From the NCBI GenBank assembly GCA_951406725.2, contig OX597814.1:195858001-195922000 (forward strand): a DNA stretch of 64,000 nucleotides, written 5' to 3'. The notes under the pieces were generated by a model. It was not told the origin of the DNA, ran no database searches, and worked only from the letters and a program-made list of their open reading frames with translations. The translations under genes were made by a program, and so were the position numbers. Below, piece by piece: positions 2,277 through 54,419 of the stretch (position 1 is its first letter; each line of letters opens with the position of its first letter). This DNA is from Octopus vulgaris (lineage: Eukaryota).

Positions 2277-2340
<64 letters not shown>

Positions 2341-2561
2341 TCAATATAGGGTGGCAAGGAAAATTTTGTAGAATTTTATTGCCACCAGCGGCCCAGTGGG
2401 AAAAAATTAAATAGTCATAGACCATTTTTAAGTTCAACATTAACAATTAAGGAACGGCCATAATAGGCCATTCACCCACTAGAAATAACAGCCAAAGCTT
2501 CTACCGCAAATAAAGATCAATTCCGTAAACAGGAGAAAATTAAAAAAACATTTACCCTGTA

Positions 2562-2668
2562 ATTTCTTGTACGGTATACCGTTTCATCTGCTGTTTAATG
2601 GTAAACTAACCTGATTAAATTAAATCAAGCCAATCTTCCATAAGCCCTCAGATTCTTCAGCAAGAAAT
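2562..2668 (-). ncRNA. Type I hammerhead ribozyme (array A left arm; also 3053-3159 and 3544-3650)
   Basis: Reverse complement of the motif at 4052-4158. Confidence 0.85.
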
Positions 2669-4051
2669 AGCTCAAGTCGGAACAGATATTTACACGAGGC
2701 GTACCTAACCCTGCCAAGGCAATATCTGACCTAAAATTTTCAAATCGTCGCACTCGCGCCAAATTTATCGGCAGCAAATAAATATCAGCCGTCGATTCCA
2801 TTACGGAGTTAACCAAAAAATTCATAATTAATCAATATAGGGTGGCAAGGAAAATTTTGTAGAATTTTATTGCCACCAGCGGCCCAGTGGGAAAAAATTA
2901 AATAGTCATAGACCATTTTTAAGTTCAACATTAACAATTAAGGAACGGCCATAATAGGCCATTCACCCACTAGAAATAACAGCCAAAGCTTCTACCGCAA
3001 ATAAAGATCAATTCCGTAAACAGGAGAAAATTAAAAAAACATTTACCCTGTAATTTCTTGTACGGTATACCGTTTCATCTGCTGTTTAATGGTAAACTAA
3101 CCTGATTAAATTAAATCAAGCCAATCTTCCATAAGCCCTCAGATTCTTCAGCAAGAAATAGCTCAAGTCGGAACAGATATTTACACGAGGCGTACCTAAC
3201 CCTGCCAAGGCAATATCTGACCTAAAATTTTCAAATCGTCGCACTCGCGCCAAATTTATCGGCAGCAAATAAATATCAGCCGTCGATTCCATTACGGAGT
3301 TAACCAAAAAATTCATAATTAATCAATATAGGGTGGCAAGGAAAATTTTGTAGAATTTTATTGCCACCAGCGGCCCAGTGGGAAAAAATTAAATAGTCAT
3401 AGACCATTTTTAAGTTCAACATTAACAATTAAGGAACGGCCATAATAGGCCATTCACCCACTAGAAATAACAGCCAAAGCTTCTACCGCAAATAAAGATC
3501 AATTCCGTAAACAGGAGAAAATTAAAAAAACATTTACCCTGTAATTTCTTGTACGGTATACCGTTTCATCTGCTGTTTAATGGTAAACTAACCTGATTAA
3601 ATTAAATCAAGCCAATCTTCCATAAGCCCTCAGATTCTTCAGCAAGAAATAGCTCAAGTCGGAACAGATATTTACACGAGGCGTGTAAATTTTCTCCTGT
3701 TTACGGAATTGATCTTTATTTGCGGTAGAAGCTTTGGCTGTTATTTCTAGTGGGTGAATGGCCTATTATGGCCGTTCCTTAATTGTTAATGTTGAACTTA
3801 AAAATGGTCTATGACTATTTAATTTTTTCCCACTGGGCCGCTGGTGGCAATAAAATTCTACAAAATTTTCCTTGCCACCCTATATTGATTAATTATGAAT
3901 TTTTTGGTTAACTCCGTAATGGAATCGACGGCTGATATTTATTTGCTGCCGATAAATTTGGCGCGAGTGCGACGATTTGAAAATTTTAGGTCAGATATTG
4001 CCTTGGCAGGGTTAGGTACGCCTCGTGTAAATATCTGTTCCGACTTGAGCT

Positions 4052-4158
4052 ATTTCTTGCTGAAGAATCTGAGGGCTTATGGAAGATTGGCTTGATTTAA
4101 TTTAATCAGGTTAGTTTACCATTAAACAGCAGATGAAACGGTATACCGTACAAGAAAT
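4052..4158 (+). ncRNA. Type I hammerhead ribozyme with extended stem II (first of 14 plus-strand copies, every ~491 bp)
   Basis: Stem I atttcttg/caagaaat; core CTGAAGA 4060-4066; stem II atctg/cagat; GAAA 4135-4138; palindromic stem III ACGGTATACCGT; predicted GUA cleavage after 4150. Confidence 0.9.
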
Positions 4159-7100
4159 TACAGGGTAAATGTTTTTTTAATTTTCTCCTGTTTACGGAAT
4201 TGATCTTTATTTGCGGTAGAAGCTTTGGCTGTTATTTCTAGTGGGTGAATGGCCTATTATGGCCGTTCCTTAATTGTTAATGTTGAACTTAAAAATGGTC
4301 TATGACTATTTAATTTTTTCCCACTGGGCCGCTGGTGGCAATAAAATTCTACAAAATTTTCCTTGCCACCCTATATTGATTAATTATGAATTTTTTGGTT
4401 AATTCCGTAATGGAATCGACGGCTGATATTTATTTGCTGCCGATAAATTTGGCGCGAGTGCGACGATTTGAAAATTTTAGGTCAGATATTGCCTTGGCAG
4501 GGTTAGGTACGCCTCGTGTAAATATCTGTTCCGACTTGAGCTATTTCTTGCTGAAGAATCTGAGGGCTTATGGAAGATTGGCTTGATTTAATTTAATCAG
4601 GTTAGTTTACCATTAAACAGCAGATGAAACGGTATACCGTACAAGAAATTACAGGGTAAATGTTTTTTTAATTTTCTCCTGTTTACGGAATTGATCTTTA
4701 TTTGCGGTAGAAGCTTTGGCTGTTATTTCTAGTGGGTGAATGGCCTATTATGGCCGTTCCTTAATTGTTAATGTTGAACTTAAAAATGGTCTATGACTAT
4801 TTAATTTTTTCCCACTGGGCCGCTGGTGGCAATAAAATTCTACAAAATTTTCCTTGCCACCCTATATTGATTAATTATGAATTTTTTGGTTAATTCCGTA
4901 ATGGAATCGACGGCTGATATTTATTTGCTGCCGATAAATTTGGCGCGAGTGCGACGATTTGAAAATTTTAGGTCAGATATTGCCTTGGCAGGGTTGGGTA
5001 CGCCTCGTGTAAATATCTGTTCCGACTTGAGCTATTTCTTGCTGAAGAATCTGAGGGCTTATGGAAGATTGGCTTGATTTAATTTAATCAGGTTAGTTTA
5101 CCATTAAACAGCAGATGAAACGGTATACCGTACAAGAAATTACAGGGTAAATGTTTTTTTAATTTTCTCCTGTTTACGGAATTGATCTTTATTTGCGGTA
5201 GAAGCTTTGGCTGTTATTTCTAGTGGGTGAATGGCCTATTATGGCCGTTCCTTAATTGTTAATGTTGAACTTAAAAATGGTCTATGACTATTTAATTTTT
5301 TCCCACTGGGCCGCTGGTGGCAATAAAATTCTACAAAATTTTCCTTGCCACCCTATATTGATTAATTATGAATTTTTTGGTTAATTCCGTAATGGAATCG
5401 ACGGCTGATATTTATTTGCTGCCGATAAATTTGGCGCGAGTGCGACGATTTGAAAATTTTAGGTCAGATATTGCCTTGGCAGGGTTAGGTACGCCTCGTG
5501 TAAATATCTGTTCCGACTTGAGCTATTTCTTGCTGAAGAATCTGAGGGCTTATGGAAGATTGGCTTGATTTAATTTAATCAGGTTAGTTTACCATTAAAC
5601 AGCAGATGGAAACGGTATACCGTACAAGAAATTACAGGGTAAATGTTTTTTTAATTTTCTCCTGTTTACGGAATTGATCTTTATTTGCGGTAGAAGCTTT
5701 GGCTGTTATTTCTAGTGGGTGAATGGCCTATTATGGCCGTTCCTTAATTGTTAATGTTGAACTTAAAAATGGTCTATGACTATTTAATTTTTTCCCACTG
5801 GGCCGCTGGTGGCAATAAAATTCTACAAAATTTTCCTTGCCACCCTATATTGATTAATTATGAATTTTTTGGTTAACTCCGTAATGGAATCGACGGCTGA
5901 TATTTATTTGCTGCCGATAAATTTGGCGCGAGTGCGACGATTTGAAAATTTTAGGTCAGATATTGCCTTGGCAGGGTTGGGTACGCCTCGTGTAAATATC
6001 TGTTCCGACTTGAGCTATTTCTTGCTGAAGAATCTGAGGGCTTATGGAAGATTGGCTTGATTTAATTTAATCAGGTTAGTTTACCATTAAACAGCAGATG
6101 AAACGGTATACCGTACAAGAAATTACAGGGTAAATGTTTTTTTAATTTTCTCCTGTTTACGGAATTGATCTTTATTTGCGGTAGAAGCTTTGGCTGTTAT
6201 TTCTAGTGGGTGAATGGCCTATTATGGCCGTTCCTTAATTGTTAATGTTGAACTTAAAAATGGTCTATGACTATTTAATTTTTTCCCACTGGGCCGCTGG
6301 TGGCAATAAAATTCTACAAAATTTTCCTTGCCACCCTATATTGATTAATTATGAATTTTTTGGTTAATTCCGTAATGGAATCGACGGCTGATATTTATTT
6401 GCTGCCGATAAATTTGGCGCGAGTGCGACGATTTGAAAATTTTAGGTCAGATATTGCCTTGGCAGGGTTGGGTACGCCTCGTGTAAATATCTGTTCCGAC
6501 TTGAGCTATTTCTTGCTGAAGAATCTGAGGGCTTATGGAAGATTGGCTTGATTTAATTTAATCAGGTTAGTTTACCATTAAACAGCAGATGAAACGGTAT
6601 ACCGTACAAGAAATTACAGGGTAAATGTTTTTTTAATTTTCTCCTGTTTACGGAATTGATCTTTATTTGCGGTAGAAGCTTTGGCTGTTATTTCTAGTGG
6701 GTGAATGGCCTATTATGGCCGTTCCTTAATTGTTAATGTTGAACTTAAAAATGGTCTATGACTATTTAATTTTTTCCCACTGGGCCGCTGGTGGCAATAA
6801 AATTCTACAAAATTTTCCTTGCCACCCTATATTGATTAATTATGAATTTTTTGGTTAATTCCGTAATGGAATCGACGGCTGATATTTATTTGCTGCCGAT
6901 AAATTTGGCGCGAGTGCGACGATTTGAAAATTTTAGGTCAGATATTGCCTTGGCAGGGTTGGGTACGCCTCGTGTAAATATCTGTTCCGACTTGAGCTAT
7001 TTCTTGCTGAAGAATCTGAGGGCTTATGGAAGATTGGCTTGATTTAATTTAATCAGGTTAGTTTACCATTAAACAGCAGATGAAACGGTATACCGTACAA

Positions 7101-10100
7101 GAAATTACAGGGTAAATGTTTTTTTAATTTTCTCCTGTTTACGGAATTGATCTTTATTTGCGGTAGAAGCTTTGGCTGTTATTTCTAGTGGGTGAATGGC
7201 CTATTATGGCCGTTCCTTAATTGTTAATGTTGAACTTAAAAATGGTCTATGACTATTTAATTTTTTCCCACTGGGCCGCTGGTGGCAATAAAATTCTACA
7301 AAATTTTCCTTGCCACCCTATATTGATTAATTATGAATTTTTTGGTTAATTCCGTAATGGAATCGACGGCTGATATTTATTTGCTGCCGATAAATTTGGC
7401 GCGAGTGCGACGATTTGAAAATTTTAGGTCAGATATTGCCTTGGCAGGGTTAGGGTACGCCTCGTGTAAATATCTGTTCCGACTTGAGCTATTTCTTGCT
7501 GAAGAATCTGAGGGCTTATGGAAGATTGGCTTGATTTAATTTAATCAGGTTAGTTTACCATTAAACAGCAGATGAAACGGTATACCGTACAAGAAATTAC
7601 AGGGTAAATGTTTTTTTAATTTTCTCCTGTTTACGGAATTGATCTTTATTTGCGGTAGAAGCTTTGGCTGTTATTTCTAGTGGGTGAATGGCCTATTATG
7701 GCCGTTCCTTAATTGTTAATGTTGAACTTAAAAATGGTCTATGACTATTTAATTTTTTCCCACTGGGCCGCTGGTGGCAATAAAATTCTACAAAATTTTC
7801 CTTGCCACCCTATATTGATTAATTATGAATTTTTTGGTTAACTCCGTAATGGAATCGACGGCTGATATTTATTTGCTGCCGATAAATTTGGCGCGAGTGC
7901 GACGATTTGAAAATTTTAGGTCAGATATTGCCTTGGCAGGGTTAGGTACGCCTCGTGTAAATATCTGTTCCGACTTGAGCTATTTCTTGCTGAAGAATCT
8001 GAGGGCTTATGGAAGATTGGCTTGATTTAATTTAATCAGGTTAGTTTACCATTAAACAGCAGATGAAACGGTATACCGTACAAGAAATTACAGGGTAAAT
8101 GTTTTTTTAATTTTCTCCTGTTTACGGAATTGATCTTTATTTGCGGTAGAAGCTTTGGCTGTTATTTCTAGTGGGTGAATGGCCTATTATGGCCGTTCCT
8201 TAATTGTTAATGTTGAACTTAAAAATGGTCTATGACTATTTAATTTTTTCCCACTGGGCCGCTGGTGGCAATAAAATTCTACAAAATTTTCCTTGCCACC
8301 CTATATTGATTAATTATGAATTTTTTGGTTAACTCCGTAATGGAATCGACGGCTGATATTTATTTGCTGCCGATAAATTTGGCGCGAGTGCGACGATTTG
8401 AAAATTTTAGGTCAGATATTGCCTTGGCAGGGTTAGGTACGCCTCGTGTAAATATCTGTTCCGACTTGAGCTATTTCTTGCTGAAGAATCTGAGGGCTTA
8501 TGGAAGATTGGCTTGATTTAATTTAATCAGGTTAGTTTACCATTAAACAGCAGATGAAACGGTATACCGTACAAGAAATTACAGGGTAAATGTTTTTTTA
8601 ATTTTCTCCTGTTTACGGAATTGATCTTTATTTGCGGTAGAAGCTTTGGCTGTTATTTCTAGTGGGTGAATGGCCTATTATGGCCGTTCCTTAATTGTTA
8701 ATGTTGAACTTAAAAATGGTCTATGACTATTTAATTTTTTCCCACTGGGCCGCTGGTGGCAATAAAATTCTACAAAATTTTCCTTGCCACCCTATATTGA
8801 TTAATTATGAATTTTTTGGTTAACTCCGTAATGGAATCGACGGCTGATATTTATTTGCTGCCGATAAATTTGGCGCGAGTGCGACGATTTGAAAATTTTA
8901 GGTCAGATATTGCCTTGGCAGGGTTAGGTACGCCTCGTGTAAATATCTGTTCCGACTTGAGCTATTTCTTGCTGAAGAATCTGAGGGCTTATGGAAGATT
9001 GGCTTGATTTAATTTAATCAGGTTAGTTTACCATTAAACAGCAGATGAAACGGTATACCGTACAAGAAATTACAGGGTAAATGTTTTTTTAATTTTTCTC
9101 CTGTTTACGGAATTGATCTTTATTTGCGGTAGAAGCTTTGGCTGTTATTTCTAGTGGGTGAATGGCCTATTATGGCCGTTCCTTAATTGTTAATGTTGAA
9201 CTTAAAAATGGTCTATGACTATTTAATTTTTTCCCACTGGGCCGCTGGTGGCAATAAAATTCTACAAAATTTTCCTTGCCACCCTATATTGATTAATTAT
9301 GAATTTTTTGGTTAATTCCGTAATGGAATCGACGGCTGATATTTATTTGCTGCCGATAAATTTGGCGCGAGTGCGACGATTTGAAAATTTTAGGTCAGAT
9401 ATTGCCTTGGCAGGGTTAGGTACGCCTCGTGTAAATATCTGTTCCGACTTGAGCTATTTCTTGCTGAAGAATCTGAGGGCTTATGGAAGATTGGCTTGAT
9501 TTAATTTAATCAGGTTAGTTTACCATTAAACAGCAGATGAAACGGTATACCGTACAAGAAATTACAGGGTAAATGTTTTTTTAATTTTCTCCTGTTTACG
9601 GAATTGATCTTTATTTGCGGTAGAAGCTTTGGCTGTTATTTCTAGTGGGTGAATGGCCTATTATGGCCGTTCCTTAATTGTTAATGTTGAACTTAAAAAT
9701 GGTCTATGACTATTTAATTTTTTCCCACTGGGCCGCTGGTGGCAATAAAATTCTACAAAATTTTCCTTGCCACCCTATATTGATTAATTATGAATTTTTT
9801 GGTTAACTCCGTAATGGAATCGACGGCTGATATTTATTTGCTGCCGATAAATTTGGCGCGAGTGCGACGATTTGAAAATTTTAGGTCAGATATTGCCTTG
9901 GCAGGGTTAGGTACGCCTCGTGTAAATATCTGTTCCGACTTGAGCTATTTCTTGCTGAAGAATCTGAGGGCTTATGGAAGATTGGCTTGATTTAATTTAA
10001 TCAGGTTAGTTTACCATTAAACAGCAGATGAAACGGTATACCGTACAAGAAATTACAGGGTAAATGTTTTTTTAATTTTCTCCTGTTTACGGAATTGATC

Positions 10101-10662
10101 TTTATTTGCGGTAGAAGCTTTGGCTGTTATTTCTAGTGGGTGAATGGCCTATTATGGCCGTTCCTTAATTGTTAATGTTGAACTTAAAAATGGTCTATGA
10201 CTATTTAATTTTTTCCCACTGGGCCGCTGGTGGCAATAAAATTCTACAAAATTTTCCTTGCCACCCTATATTGATTAATTATGAATTTTTTGGTTAACTC
10301 CGTAATGGAATCGACGGCTGATATTTATTTGCTGCCGATAAATTTGGCGCGAGTGCGACGATTTGAAAATTTTAGGTCAGATATTGCCTTGGCAGGGTTA
10401 GGTACGCCTCGTGTAAATATCTGTTCCGACTTGAGCTATTTCTTGCTGAAGAATCTGAGGGCTTATGGAAGATTGGCTTGATTTAATTTAATCAGGTTAG
10501 TTTACCATTAAACAGCAGATGAAACGGTATACCGTACAAGAAATTACAGGGTAAATGTTTTTTTAATTTTCTCCTGTTTACGGAATTGATCTTTATTTGC
10601 GGTAGAAGCTTTGGCTGTTATTTCTAGTGGGTGAATGGCCTATTATGGCCGTTCCTTAATTG

Positions 10663-10703
<41 letters not shown>

Positions 10704-10708
<5 letters not shown>

Positions 10709-10916
10709 TAATCCAAACATGAAAACACAAAGAGAAAACACAACAACGCGAGGACGTGGAACAAATATAGTATCATTGGACGCTCAGGAAGGAAGGGAAG
10801 ATGCAGGGTTTAACGTTTCGAGCGGAGCTCTTCGTCAGAAACATAGGAAAAGGAAAGATCCAGAGAAGGGAAGACGGAGGAAAAAAAATCGCCAACGGTA
10901 AACGCGCGGTCACATT

Positions 10917-10920
<4 letters not shown>
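10704..10920 (-). mobile_element. Short Penelope pLTR-like fragment in (TA)n with minimal hammerhead
   Basis: Minus strand 10808-10842: gttt-CTGACGA-a-GAGC-tcc-GCTC-GAAA-cg-TT-aaac; (TA)n on both sides. Confidence 0.75.
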
Positions 10921-10964
<44 letters not shown>

Positions 10965-11186
10965 TCAATATAGGGTGGCAAAAGAAATTTTGTAGAATTC
11001 TTTTGCCACCAGCGGCCTAGTGGGAAAAAATTTAAATAGTCATAAACCATTTTTAAGTTCAACATCACAATCAAGGAACGGCCATAATAGGCCATTCACC
11101 CACTAGAAATAACAGCCAAAAGCTTTAACCGCAAAATAACGTCAATTCCGTAAACCAGGAGAAAATTAAAAAACATTTACCCTGTA

Positions 11187-11293
11187 ATTTCTTAGACGAT
11201 GCACCGTTTCATCTACTGTTTAATGGAAAACTAACCTGATTAAATTAAATCAAGCCAATCTACCATAGGCCCTTAGATTCATCAGTAAGAAAT
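11187..11293 (-). ncRNA. Type I hammerhead ribozyme, subfamily B left arm
   Basis: Reverse complement of the 11879-11985 motif. Confidence 0.85.
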
Positions 11294-11878
11294 AGCCAAG
11301 CCGGAACAGATATATTTCACGAGGCATTCTCGTTGCTACCTCGTCAATATCTGACCTAAAATTTTCAAATCGTCGCACTCGCACCAAATTTATCGGCAGC
11401 AAATAAATATAAGCCGCCGATTCCATTACGGAATTAACCAGAAAATTCATAATTAATCAATATAGGGTGGCAAAAGAAATTTTGTAGAATTCTTTTGCCA
11501 CCAGCGGCCTAGTGGGAAAAAATTTAAATAGTCATTGACGTTATTTTGCGGTTAAAGCTTTTGGCTGTTATTTCTAGTGGGTGAATGGCCTATTATGGCC
11601 GTTCCTTGATTGTGATGTTGAACTTAAAAATGGTTTATGACTATTTAAATTTTTTCCCACTAGGCCGCTGGTGGCAAAAGAATTCTACAAAATTTCTTTT
11701 GCCACCCTATATTGATTAATTATGAATTTTCTGGTTAATTCCGTAATGGAATAGGCGGCTTATATTTATTTGCTGCCGATAAATTTGGCGCGAGTGCGAC
11801 GATTTGAAAATTTTAGGTCAGATATTGACGAGGTAGCAACGAGAATGCCTCGTGAAAAATATCTGTTCCGGCTTGGCT

Positions 11879-11985
11879 ATTTCTTACTGATGAATCTAAG
11901 GGCCTGTGGTAGATTGGCTTGATTTAATTTAATCAGGTTAGTTTTCCATTAAACAGTAGATGAAACGGTGCATCGTCTAAGAAAT
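11879..11985 (+). ncRNA. Type I hammerhead ribozyme, subfamily B right arm
   Basis: atttctta-CTGATGA-atcta...tagat-GAAA-cggtgcatcg-TC-taagaaat; canonical CUGAUGA core and GUC site. Confidence 0.9.
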
Positions 11986-12313
11986 TACAGGGTAAATGTT
12001 TTTTAATTTTCTCCTGGTTTACGGAATTGACGTTATTTTGCGGTTAAAGCTTTTGGCTGTTATTTCTAGTGGGTGAATGGCCTATTATGGCCGTTCCTTG
12101 ATTGTGATATATATATATATATATATATAAATGCAAGTTGTATTATCTTTCACGGACGAATACTGGCAAAGGAAGGGTCGTTCGTTCTGTATCAAAGCAT
12201 TTCGTTATCACTGGTGCCGGCAGAACTTCTAATCAGGAAATGGATGGTGGGAAACTTTTAGTTGTGCGTGCGGACGAATACTAATCTCAAATTGAAGTGT
12301 AGCACAAATATAT

Positions 12314-19592: not shown

Positions 19593-19601
<9 letters not shown>

Positions 19602-20202
19602 GTGAATTGAAGAAATGGAGCTGAACGAAGATTGAACAGAAATCGTTTTATTTCATTCTACACGTGTTTCGAAAGGCACAATTTACCAAAATCCGATTGA
19701 ATAATGAGACCATATTGTGTCTTTCTCTTCAGGAAGAAATAGGAAATCCGTTGGAAAAAACAAAAACAGAACAGAGGCGGAGCAAAACAAATCGAACTAG
19801 GCTCCTAAGAGCCCATGGCCAAACTCTTGGCCATGGGCTCTTAGGAGCCTAGTTCGATTTGTTTTGCTCCGCCTCTGTTCTTTTTTTGTTTTTTCCAACG
19901 GATTTCCTATTTCTTCCTGAAGAGAAAGACACAATATGGTCTCATTATTCAATCGGATTTTGGTAAATTGTGCCTTTCGAAACACGTGTAGAATGAAATA
20001 AAACGATTTCTGTTCAATCTTCGTTCAGCTCCATTTCTTCAATTCACCAATAATATTAAAATTCAATTATCCGCACCAACGCACGGTTGCAACACCATAT
20101 GGTTGTACCTCCAACCGTGCTGTCTTCTGCTGTGATTTTTGCTACCAAGGTATCGGTTAAACTTTTGATTCATCTGCTACAAGATTATTCATCTTTCTAT
20201 TT

Positions 20203-33717: not shown

Positions 33718-33997
33718 TATTCTGTTGTGTCTGGGGAGAGTCATTTTCTTTTAGTGCCTTATAACATAACACACTCACCGGTAAAATTACCACTTTTTTC
33801 ATATTTTTATTTTCCTAAAATTTTCGTTGCATCTTGCAATCTTTTCGATAGTCTTGACTCAAGACCATTGAAAAGGTTGCAAGACGCAACGAAAATTTTA
33901 GGAAAATAAAAATATGAAAAAAGTGGTAATTTTACCGGTGAGTGTGTTACATAATAAGGTACAAAAAGAAATGACTCTCCCCACACACAACAGAATA
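33718..33997. mobile_element. Fold-back element (~140-bp imperfect arms) with central head-to-head hammerhead-like motifs (U3-A8 core)
   Basis: Inverted repeat centred at ~33858. Plus strand: cca-TTGAAAA-g-GTTGC-aagac-GCAAC-GAAA-at-TT-tag (33865-33901). Confidence 0.7.
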
Positions 33998-52295: not shown

Positions 52296-53429
52296 TGAAT
52301 CCAGACAAGTATAACGTTATCAATAAAAAAAATACCAGAGTTATAGTAATGAAATTAAAACAAGCCGAACATATAGAATGATTAACCATGCTTGAAACAT
52401 AAATCACAAGGAGAACTTCACGTCCATTCCAAATGAAGATTAATTAACGCAGCCAAGTAAAATCTGATAAAATAGGAAACACATCTTGAACATTATAAAT
52501 GTCAAAATCAAGAGCACCAAAAAGAACAAGCAATGGAATATCAGTAACGATGTAGTCATGTGACTCAGCAGTACTGGAAACAAAAATTAATGGTAGCTTT
52601 ACCCAGTGTAATATTGTTGGTTAGAATTCTTCCATCTTGAATTCCTTATTCACCATGACTTAAAATTTTCCCAGAAATATTGCACTATAAAAGATATATT
52701 CGGTTGGAAATATAGTGTTTTCGAATTTATGAAATGATTCCGTTGAGAATACTTTTTCAATATTAATGATAAAAAAGCATTAACCTTCACTTTTTAATGT
52801 TTCCTCGCTTTGCTCATTACTTTGCTCATTACTTTATAAATGCGTTTCGATTTTATTCCTTTAAAATGAGTTAACATCAGACCCATATCAGACACTTCCT
52901 CTGCATGAATTCAAAAGGGGCTTTTTCAATATTAAAGCAGCAAGAAATATGCATCTGGACATGCCAACGATGGTTTCATTAGTTTCGTTCGGGAAATTTT
53001 TTTTTCTCAAATACCTGACATTCTAGACTACTAAGATCAGGCAATATTGATCTTCTGAAAATCGTAGTTGAGGAAAATCCAAAGCTTCATGAGAATTAAC
53101 AAAACCGTTTAGTTCAAAATATACTTCAAACATAGACCACCTTAACGAACTAGGAAAAGTGTCTAAGTGTGGCTAGAGGATTTCTGAGCTTCTCTGCTCA
53201 TCATTGACAAGTAAACTTGTTACCAAACCTTTCCTGAGCAGAATTGTGACAAGTGATGAAATATGGGTTCTCTATAATCATATCAAACGAAAACACCAAC
53301 TGTTCGTAACCAATGGAAAAAGGTGGAATTCATCTGCAAACCAGGACTACACGTGAAAAATGTTATGCTCTGTGTTTGTTGGTATAAGATAAGCGTCGTC
53401 TTTCATGAAGTGTTAAACTAAAACCAAAC

Positions 53430-53840
53430 GAATAATATATTTCTAAATTTCTCGGACAGATTTATGCAGTAGCAGCAAATGTGACAGTCCCATAAAAGGG
53501 AAGAATGCTACTGTTATTTAGCTCTAGGAAACACCGTTTCTCGTTGAACTTGAGACAGTTCCTGTGTTCTTATGTTTCTAAAGTGGAGGCAAGTACCTCC
53601 ACCCAGCAAAGCCAGTACCCAGAGACTAGTTTCAGAGTAATCGCTCATCATCAGCCACACTACTCCAGACTGATGATGAGAAATGACTCTGAAACTAGTC
53701 TCTGGTGCTGGCTTGGCTGGGCGGAGGTGCTTGTCTCCACTTTGAAAACGTAAGGACACAGGAAATGTATCAAGTCTAACAGGAAACGGTGTTTCCTAGG
53801 GCTAAATAATGGTAGCATTCTTCCCTTTTATGGGACTGTC
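53430..53840. mobile_element. Fold-back element (arms 53482-53841) with head-to-head hammerheads, inserted in mariner
   Basis: Imperfect ~175-bp inverted arms; candidate TSD aaaaccaaac (53420-53429) / aaaacgaaac (53841-53850). Confidence 0.8.
53665..53705 (+). ncRNA. Minimal type I hammerhead ribozyme (mirror copy on minus at 53619-53656)
   Basis: ccaga-CTGATGA-tgagaaatgactct-GAAA-ctag-TC-tctgg; palindromic stem III ACTAGT; GUC site. Confidence 0.85.
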
Positions 53841-54419
53841 AAAACGAAACAGTGCGGAGAAGTATTGACGTTCCTTGAAAGCATTGCACAAAATTTGTAG
53901 AAAAAAAAAGTGTACATCGTGGGTCAGTATTAAAGGGGTGTAAATCTCACACGATAAAGTCAGACCAGAAATTGTTCACTCAGGAGAATATGTTGGCACA
54001 AAATATAGAAATTTTGTCTTATCCTCCGTATTCTTCTGATTTTATTCTATGTGACTCTTACCTTTTCAAATCATTGCAACGTTATTCAGAGGTGCAGAGA
54101 ATAAAAAAAATACCAAGTCTTTAACTGCTTCAAAAAACTGATAAAACAGATGAGATTTATACTCGAGAATCAAAATTTGCATAATTTATGAGACGGTATT
54201 ATCAATAATGAGGTGAAATATTATCTAGAATAAATATATGAATTTAGAACAAAAGAGCATTTGCTTTTTGCCCAAGCAGAAATGGGACCAGATTTTTTCA
54301 ACATAGTACATAGACTAATTATGGACACATTATATTTTTACTATTTTATTCCACTCAAGATGTAGCTTATGAAAACATGAGCATGAACGGTTTTCTACAT
54401 AGTGAAATGTGCAACTATT

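Follow-up and report, generated by a model that had tools for sequence, protein, structure and literature searches.

Within the window, the whole 64,000-bp stretch of Octopus vulgaris DNA that was analysed, a decayed mariner copy (Tc1/mariner) occupies approximately positions 52696-54298 and is interrupted by a 411-bp insert at 53430-53840, which forms a hairpin. The 5' part of the mariner with its first catalytic-motif region (52696..53429, + strand) was delimited by paralogue coverage and by matches to SETMAR and Mos1 (E 5e-4 to 2e-3), and the 3' part of the same copy (53841..54298, + strand) by paralogue coverage; the latter carries a decayed motif which we take to be YSPDL-like, and gave a weak SETMAR/Mos1 match only (E 0.24), while the Pfam Transposase_1 profile matched the host with an E-value of 0.0023, below its cut-off. 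Each mariner flank was aligned separately to 43 paralogue loci, none of which contains the inserted segment. The insert is bordered by the 10-mers AAAACCAAAC (53420..53429, + strand, mariner sequence) and AAAACGAAAC (53841..53850, + strand), located by paralogue alignment and a scan for target-site duplications (TSDs). These are identical in 9/10 positions and correspond to one and the same single position in the mariner paralogues, which makes the target duplication genuine. The first base of the right copy may belong to the adjoining arm, so the TSD is 9-10 bp in length, and just past the duplication the right flank is 4 nt shorter than the paralogues. The first-pass annotation had described an insertion interrupting a recognisable mariner transposase, with a candidate TSD and a pre-insertion site that could be reconstructed; the flanks do form a single decayed copy, and the empty site, with the 10-mer present once, is seen in the paralogues, which speak against the counter-possibility named there that mariner itself contains the segment.

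The insert consists of two inverted arms (53482-53654 and 53670-53841) which are approximately 87% complementary, and the 412-nt strand folds with a predicted energy of -279.8 kcal/mol (z -29), a value not equalled by any of 100 shuffles (0/100). An initial description of a ~360-bp fold-back with outward-facing cores at its centre is thus confirmed for the arms, the cores and the hairpin fold, and the ~50-bp overhang of the left arm over the right was measured at 51-53 nt. When aligned to the 345-bp monomer described below, the left arm (53482..53656, - strand) is a 5'-truncated copy of monomer positions 91-267, and is continued by a one-sided 3' tail of 51-53 nt (53430..53481, - strand), which ends at about monomer position 341 and has a 27-28-nt deletion (approximately monomer 269-296) at its inner edge. 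The right arm (53653..53841, + strand) is likewise a 5'-truncated monomer copy, of positions 76-264, and stops approximately 27 nt before the usual short end. The arms meet at an inversion junction at 53653..53656 (junction gap -4), where they have a 4-nt overlap (AGCC) in common. Over 171 columns there are 14 private changes in the left arm, 8 in the right arm and 2 changes common to both, and the arms are 87.8% identical vs a median of 92.5% in 27 loci; judged by this divergence, the window copy is an older, decaying insertion.

Two cores of the form CTGATGA...GAAACTAGTC read outward from the centre of the fold-back, at 53670-53700 (+) and 53654-53624 (-), and are 15 nt apart. The right core is part of a type I hammerhead (53653..53713, + strand), recognised from its sequence and predicted stems: a distal stem I (53653-57/53709-13) is separated by an internal loop from a 5-bp proximal stem I (53665-69/53701-05), the core letters are at 53670-76 and 53691-94, the 3-bp stem II (53678-80/53687-89) rests on a U-U, and helix III is a palindrome of 1-2 bp, with the cut predicted after 53700. 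This fits the definition of the type I hammerhead given in PMC4209133, a form described there as working as a dimer. The left core (53624..53654, - strand, from core pattern and folding) has intact core letters and lacks the 5' strand of stem I. That copy is truncated at position 91, so that only 2 bp of stem I are possible instead of 5, its constrained energy is -4.2 vs -12.0, and it is predicted to be non-functional. At its base, stem II has U-U rather than a base pair in both window hammerheads, and A-U or C-A in sister subfamilies. What had been called a canonical hammerhead pair is therefore canonical in its two intact cores, but not in the left stem I or in the U-U under stem II.

At the gathering score, an Rfam search over the window called neither hammerhead motif, and a loose hammerhead pattern had 15 matches in the window, which is not above chance (20/100 shuffles as high). 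The tight core had 856 exact matches in the genome vs 6 for a reversed control. The second counter-possibility named in the first-pass annotation, homologs without the conserved core, was not borne out either. Thirty tight-core loci were examined, of which 22 are the monomer family or its close sisters and 8 are other sequences; repeats that are older and unrelated, and combine this core and a palindromic stem III with other stems, were seen at L137, L141, L143, L145-L147, L152 and L155. The hammerhead stems are paired in 86% of cells vs 18-47% for slid controls, and stem covariation did not exceed that of shuffles in a set of 20 close sequences which are 90% alike and were partly chosen by core pattern. 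The stems of the right hammerhead have a probability of 0.0 when the whole hairpin is folded, stem I reaches 0.3-0.9 when only the right arm is, and the 65-nt right motif by itself is predicted to misfold; for a read-through RNA, a 170-bp hairpin is predicted which would bury the right hammerhead. With the cores on opposite strands there can be no dimeric ribozyme within one transcript, and a full core in both arms was found in only ~5/36 fold-backs of the family, which together make the pair an accident of two long truncations. Activity of the hammerhead is probably confined to dimers within tandem transcripts from source copies, and in the window copy the hammerhead is likely to be a passenger. 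The fragment 53665-53705, which had been put forward for a cleavage assay, does not include loop 1 or the distal stem I of the right hammerhead.

The search for other copies suggested in the first-pass annotation led to a repeat family whose mobile unit is a monomer of 345 bp, non-coding and bearing a type I hammerhead, its tail running into its head, with a GC content of 40% and a longest stop-to-stop frame of 92 aa. When the genome was searched with the right arm, 2523 first-look candidates came up and 40 of them were scored; a 16-nt motif near the monomer 3' end had 1056 exact genome matches vs 3. The family comprises at least hundreds of copies. From 60 loci fetched, 7 duplicates were dropped to give a family set of 53, which were chosen as best matches and are therefore biased toward young copies. 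Thirty-six of the 53 are head-to-head pairs, 17 are single-armed and none is tail-to-tail; in a second set, selected by motif and position rather than likeness, 21 duplicates were removed along with 9 loci in which no arm scored, and 14 of the remaining 30 loci are head-to-head. Arms longer than one monomer make up 16/89, reaching up to ~2.4 monomers, and no long tandem arrays of the monomer were seen among the fetched loci. Only 3/53 loci adjoin (TA)n, in agreement with the earlier view that hammerhead fold-backs are not restricted to such sequence. That these fold-backs are mobile insertions is correct insofar as there is a true insertion with a TSD, but the fold-back is not the mobile unit, and a mobile or functional role of the hammerhead pair is not supported. 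Contigs of four runs, for which an RNA origin is a guess, cover one family copy with 89-237 contigs each, and are of a kind from which ends, strand, circularity and level cannot be read. At one locus (L225, G000:C1:150060000-150064500) a small fold-back of the family has been amplified together with its flanks into a tandem of four copies with a ~900-bp period.

Across these loci the 3' ends cluster at monomer positions ~280-296 and 341-360, whereas the 5' ends are scattered by variable truncation. One long and one short end are combined in 25/36 pairs, with at least one other end in the remaining 11/36, and in 25/36 pairs one arm overshoots the other by ~55-65 nt; in all 20 TSD-bounded loci (20/20) the tail measures 53-66 nt. 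The short end of the window copy (264) lies outside the usual 280-296 cluster. A TSD was found in 20/36 fold-backs vs 4/300 mismatched-flank controls (17/36 vs 0/300 at a stricter score), with lengths of 9-15 bp and one 25-bp microsatellite match, and none was detectable in the other 16/36. Eighteen of the 36 junctions overlap by 2-6 nt, 9 overlap by more and 7 have extra bases, and both arm lengths and junctions are different at every locus. Of 41 arms selected by their tails, 15 run through the predicted hammerhead cut and 0 start at a distance of 5 nt or less from it; approximately one start would be expected there by chance, so the ends do not pile up at the cut, although this does not imply that it is avoided.

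A second element is associated with some monomer copies, and is absent from the window copy. It is 1.87 kb in length, encodes a zinc knuckle (Pfam zf-CCHC), has an AATAAA-like tail and is too short for a second ORF, and is, from its sequence, apparently an ORF1-only retroelement (L224:1298-3169, L259, L261, L150/L151, L158 and L260). Its insertion site is monomer position ~68-83, shortly before the hammerhead, and is marked by a ~16-bp duplication. In 30 loci chosen by the 3' end of the zinc-knuckle element the monomer follows in 8, 7 of these at position 68-74, and in L259 and L261 tandem zinc-knuckle arrays begin at monomer position 69-70. More distant zinc-knuckle copies lie elsewhere, while two others (L140 and L226), also more distant, are at about the same monomer position.

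The window contains further fold-backs and repeats. A second young fold-back, of another family, is located beside (TA)n at 19593-20056, with 98.7% identical arms and outward hammerhead-like cores that have CTGAAGA, a long stem II insert and a palindromic stem III. A short repeat with a (TA)n run on either side (10674-10962, - strand) carries a minimal hammerhead motif (core at 10838); the repeat has copies elsewhere and interrupts a tandem and inverted array of ~490-bp units at 8719-12108. A large inverted array at 2336-4875 is 96% identical over 2.5 kb with a ~490-bp periodicity, and short MITE-like fold-backs at 33718-33997 and 1900-2165 are without hammerhead cores.

Head-to-head arrangement, a one-sided tail, 5' truncation and a short TSD together correspond to the published insertion signature of Penelope-like elements (PLEs). 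The genome does contain young PLEs with open reverse transcriptase (RT) and GIY-YIG frames of 781 aa, and the autonomous-looking families (L126:1745-4088, L127 and L189-L191) have such frames of 781 aa in many copies or of ~820-880 aa; no canonical hammerhead was found near them. A nucleotide match to the monomer was absent from 28 GIY-YIG loci (0/28) and from 29 loci of a further PLE family (0/29), both being the best-scoring candidates, the 53 family loci have neither a PLE frame nor a match to a PLE protein within the monomer or directly adjoining it, and no RT/GIY-YIG element sharing the monomer turned up among loci selected by the core or the 3' hairpin motif. Two candidates for a partner were rejected: an RT fragment near one copy, the seed for the further PLE family, lies beyond a microsatellite and other, unrelated DNA, and two pairs of same-strand copies with spacings of 1.6 and 2.2 kb, which have the appearance of an ORF between terminal repeats, hold a secondary zinc-knuckle insertion. 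In L224 the monomer copy splits an opposite-strand element that carries an RT (L224:318-849, 3707-4566), gives a weak RVT_1 match and presumably resembles a Naiad PLE.

We consider it very probable that the window insert arose by retro-insertion of a non-LTR retrozyme, the non-coding 345-bp hammerhead repeat, and has since decayed; a Penelope-like RT/GIY-YIG enzyme acting in trans is the likely agent of its mobilisation. The monomer length, the geometry, the two preferred 3' ends, the truncation, the partial tandems and the duplication are all observed, and the enzymatic steps that we infer from them would run as follows. A PLE enzyme would cut an AT-rich target with a ~10-bp stagger, and reverse transcription would be primed by each target end within the element RNA, at about monomer position 345 for the first end and about 290 for the second; the two cDNAs would halt early and be joined 5' end to 5' end via an overlap of a few bases, and repair of the stagger would yield the target duplication. 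Arms that continue across the predicted cut, and may be longer than one monomer, point to an uncut multimeric or circular RNA as the template.

The window copy also bears on how the second priming site is chosen, as the usual short-end site falls within the 27-28 nt missing from its long arm, and its tail still measures 53 nt. If the template was already deleted, the second site would have been set by distance, and a ruler of ~55-60 nt, not sequence, may thus position it, although this is one case and we lean against it. The deletion junction of the left arm has a single match in the genome, the window locus itself, and a deleted subfamily matching the left arm was rejected for that reason. 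No second case was found when the ruler was sought in further loci: a 37-nt deletion in the long arm of L209 goes with a normal short end, and in L090 22 nt are missing from the short arm but not from the long one, from which it follows that arm-private deletions in this region are not rare.

The arms might instead be clipped terminal repeats (pLTR stumps) of a yet-unfound autonomous Penelope-like element rather than copies of a self-standing retrozyme. The sequence has an ATG at core position A9 with the cut 25 nt downstream, and the Anolis Poseidon element is similar, with its ORF starting at stem II and its cut 26 nt downstream (PMC11167929). The frame from the A9 ATG is short, however, and long arms run upstream of the hammerhead into the tail of another monomer, reaching 2.4 monomers, and never into a common ORF sequence; furthermore, the flanks have only unrelated repeats in common and give no PLE protein match, and we regard this origin as unlikely.

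Still less probable, and largely refuted, is mobility of the fold-back itself as a MITE-like or hairpin element with a functional outward hammerhead pair. It would account for a strong hairpin with a flanking duplication and for the fold-back being the majority form (36/53), but not for junctions and arm lengths that differ at every locus, asymmetric ends, TSDs that vary in length and sequence, or the 17/53 loci with a single arm. Two full cores are the exception in these pairs (~5/36), the left core of the window copy is without stem I, and within the whole hairpin the hammerhead stems have zero probability. The fixed symmetric termini, uniform length and fixed TSD of a MITE or class II fold-back are all absent. 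A LINE-type insertion of a single monomer with twin priming, or later recombination between two nearby insertions, is very improbable as well. TSDs of 9-15 bp and short overlaps at inversion junctions, as seen here, also arise from LINE twin priming, which inverts the 5' part of the element without duplicating the 3' part; here both arms span the same monomer positions and are enclosed by a single TSD, neither poly(A) nor a simple-repeat tail is present, and tail-to-tail pairs number 0 in 53 loci.

With the retrozyme copied by a PLE enzyme as the preferred reading, the window locus is an ordinary dead insertion, and hammerhead fold-backs with TSDs would be a normal by-product of PLE-type insertion. 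Movement of animal retrozymes by PLEs has been proposed from their co-occurrence and from phylogeny, and two internal priming sites have been shown for PLEs; the octopus family connects both, as a non-coding retrozyme which displays both ends, the inversion and the duplication, without a pile-up of ends at the ribozyme cut. If true, this would be direct anatomical evidence for retrozymes copied by PLEs with priming inside uncut or circular RNA. The family also offers a compact, clearly delimited substrate with which to ask how PLEs complete an insertion. The combined proposal that retrozymes are copied by PLE enzymes which prime inside uncut or circular RNA and not at ribozyme-made ends, that a ~55-60-nt ruler operates, and that the zinc-knuckle element specifically targets the monomer is put forward tentatively, as we consider it rather doubtful as a whole.

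The literature search gave no description of the 345-bp monomer family (Repbase and Dfam were outside its scope), whereas there are several systems with which it can be compared. From its sequence the monomer would qualify as a non-LTR retrozyme: like the metazoan members described by Cervera and de la Pena 2020 (PMC7229834) and Li et al. 2026 (bioRxiv 10.64898/2026.07.22.740005) it is non-coding within 150-450 bp, has a GC content below 50%, a type I hammerhead with a weak palindromic helix III, TSDs longer than 4 bp and head-to-tail copies, and occurs in a genome with PLEs. The axolotl HHR_Amex2 also has a U-U at the helix II base (PMC7229834). The metazoan retrozymes form long tandems, in contrast to the mostly dispersed, truncated and inverted monomer copies (PMC7229834; 10.64898/2026.07.22.740005). 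The word "inverted" is absent from the main text of PMC7229834 and occurs in that of 10.64898/2026.07.22.740005 in a reference title only; no description of PLE-type ends was found in either main text, nor one of an inversion, tail or TSD in the latter. The 2026 preprint does argue that animal retrozymes are non-autonomous PLE derivatives, and reports that 1/9 hammerhead dimers cleaved.

The Chlamys MRC1-type elements resemble the monomer as non-coding PLE derivatives with head-to-tail insertions, but differ from it in having 3' ends in common with autonomous families and in the absence of canonical hammerheads (PMC8557442). In PMC3846280 an adjacent inverted pLTR, a one-sided 31-bp tail and TSDs of 8-10 bp are described, with the head-to-head form as the commonest, and the Figure 2 legend of PMC8557442 gives the same PLE insertion anatomy for several clades. 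The insertions of the Adineta Pen2a-type endonuclease-positive (EN+) PLEs (PMC3846280; PMC8557442) are like those of the monomer family in being head-to-head and 5'-truncated with a one-sided tail and partial tandems, and also have a hammerhead in the terminal repeat. In comparison with EN+ PLEs the monomer family has no ORF, its tail is 53-66 vs 30-40 nt and its TSD 9-15 vs ~8-10 bp, and an autonomous element with the same ends was not found among the examined loci. For the Anolis carolinensis Poseidon element PAc, Frangieh et al. 2024 (PMC11167929) report that two internal priming sites define the tail in vitro, and that ribozyme cleavage is dispensable for insertion. PAc is autonomous and primes 111-118 nt into its ORF, whereas the monomer ends are ~165 and ~220 nt past the cut, yet both have two priming sites or ends downstream of the hammerhead, and both have an ATG at the start of stem II (PMC11167929).
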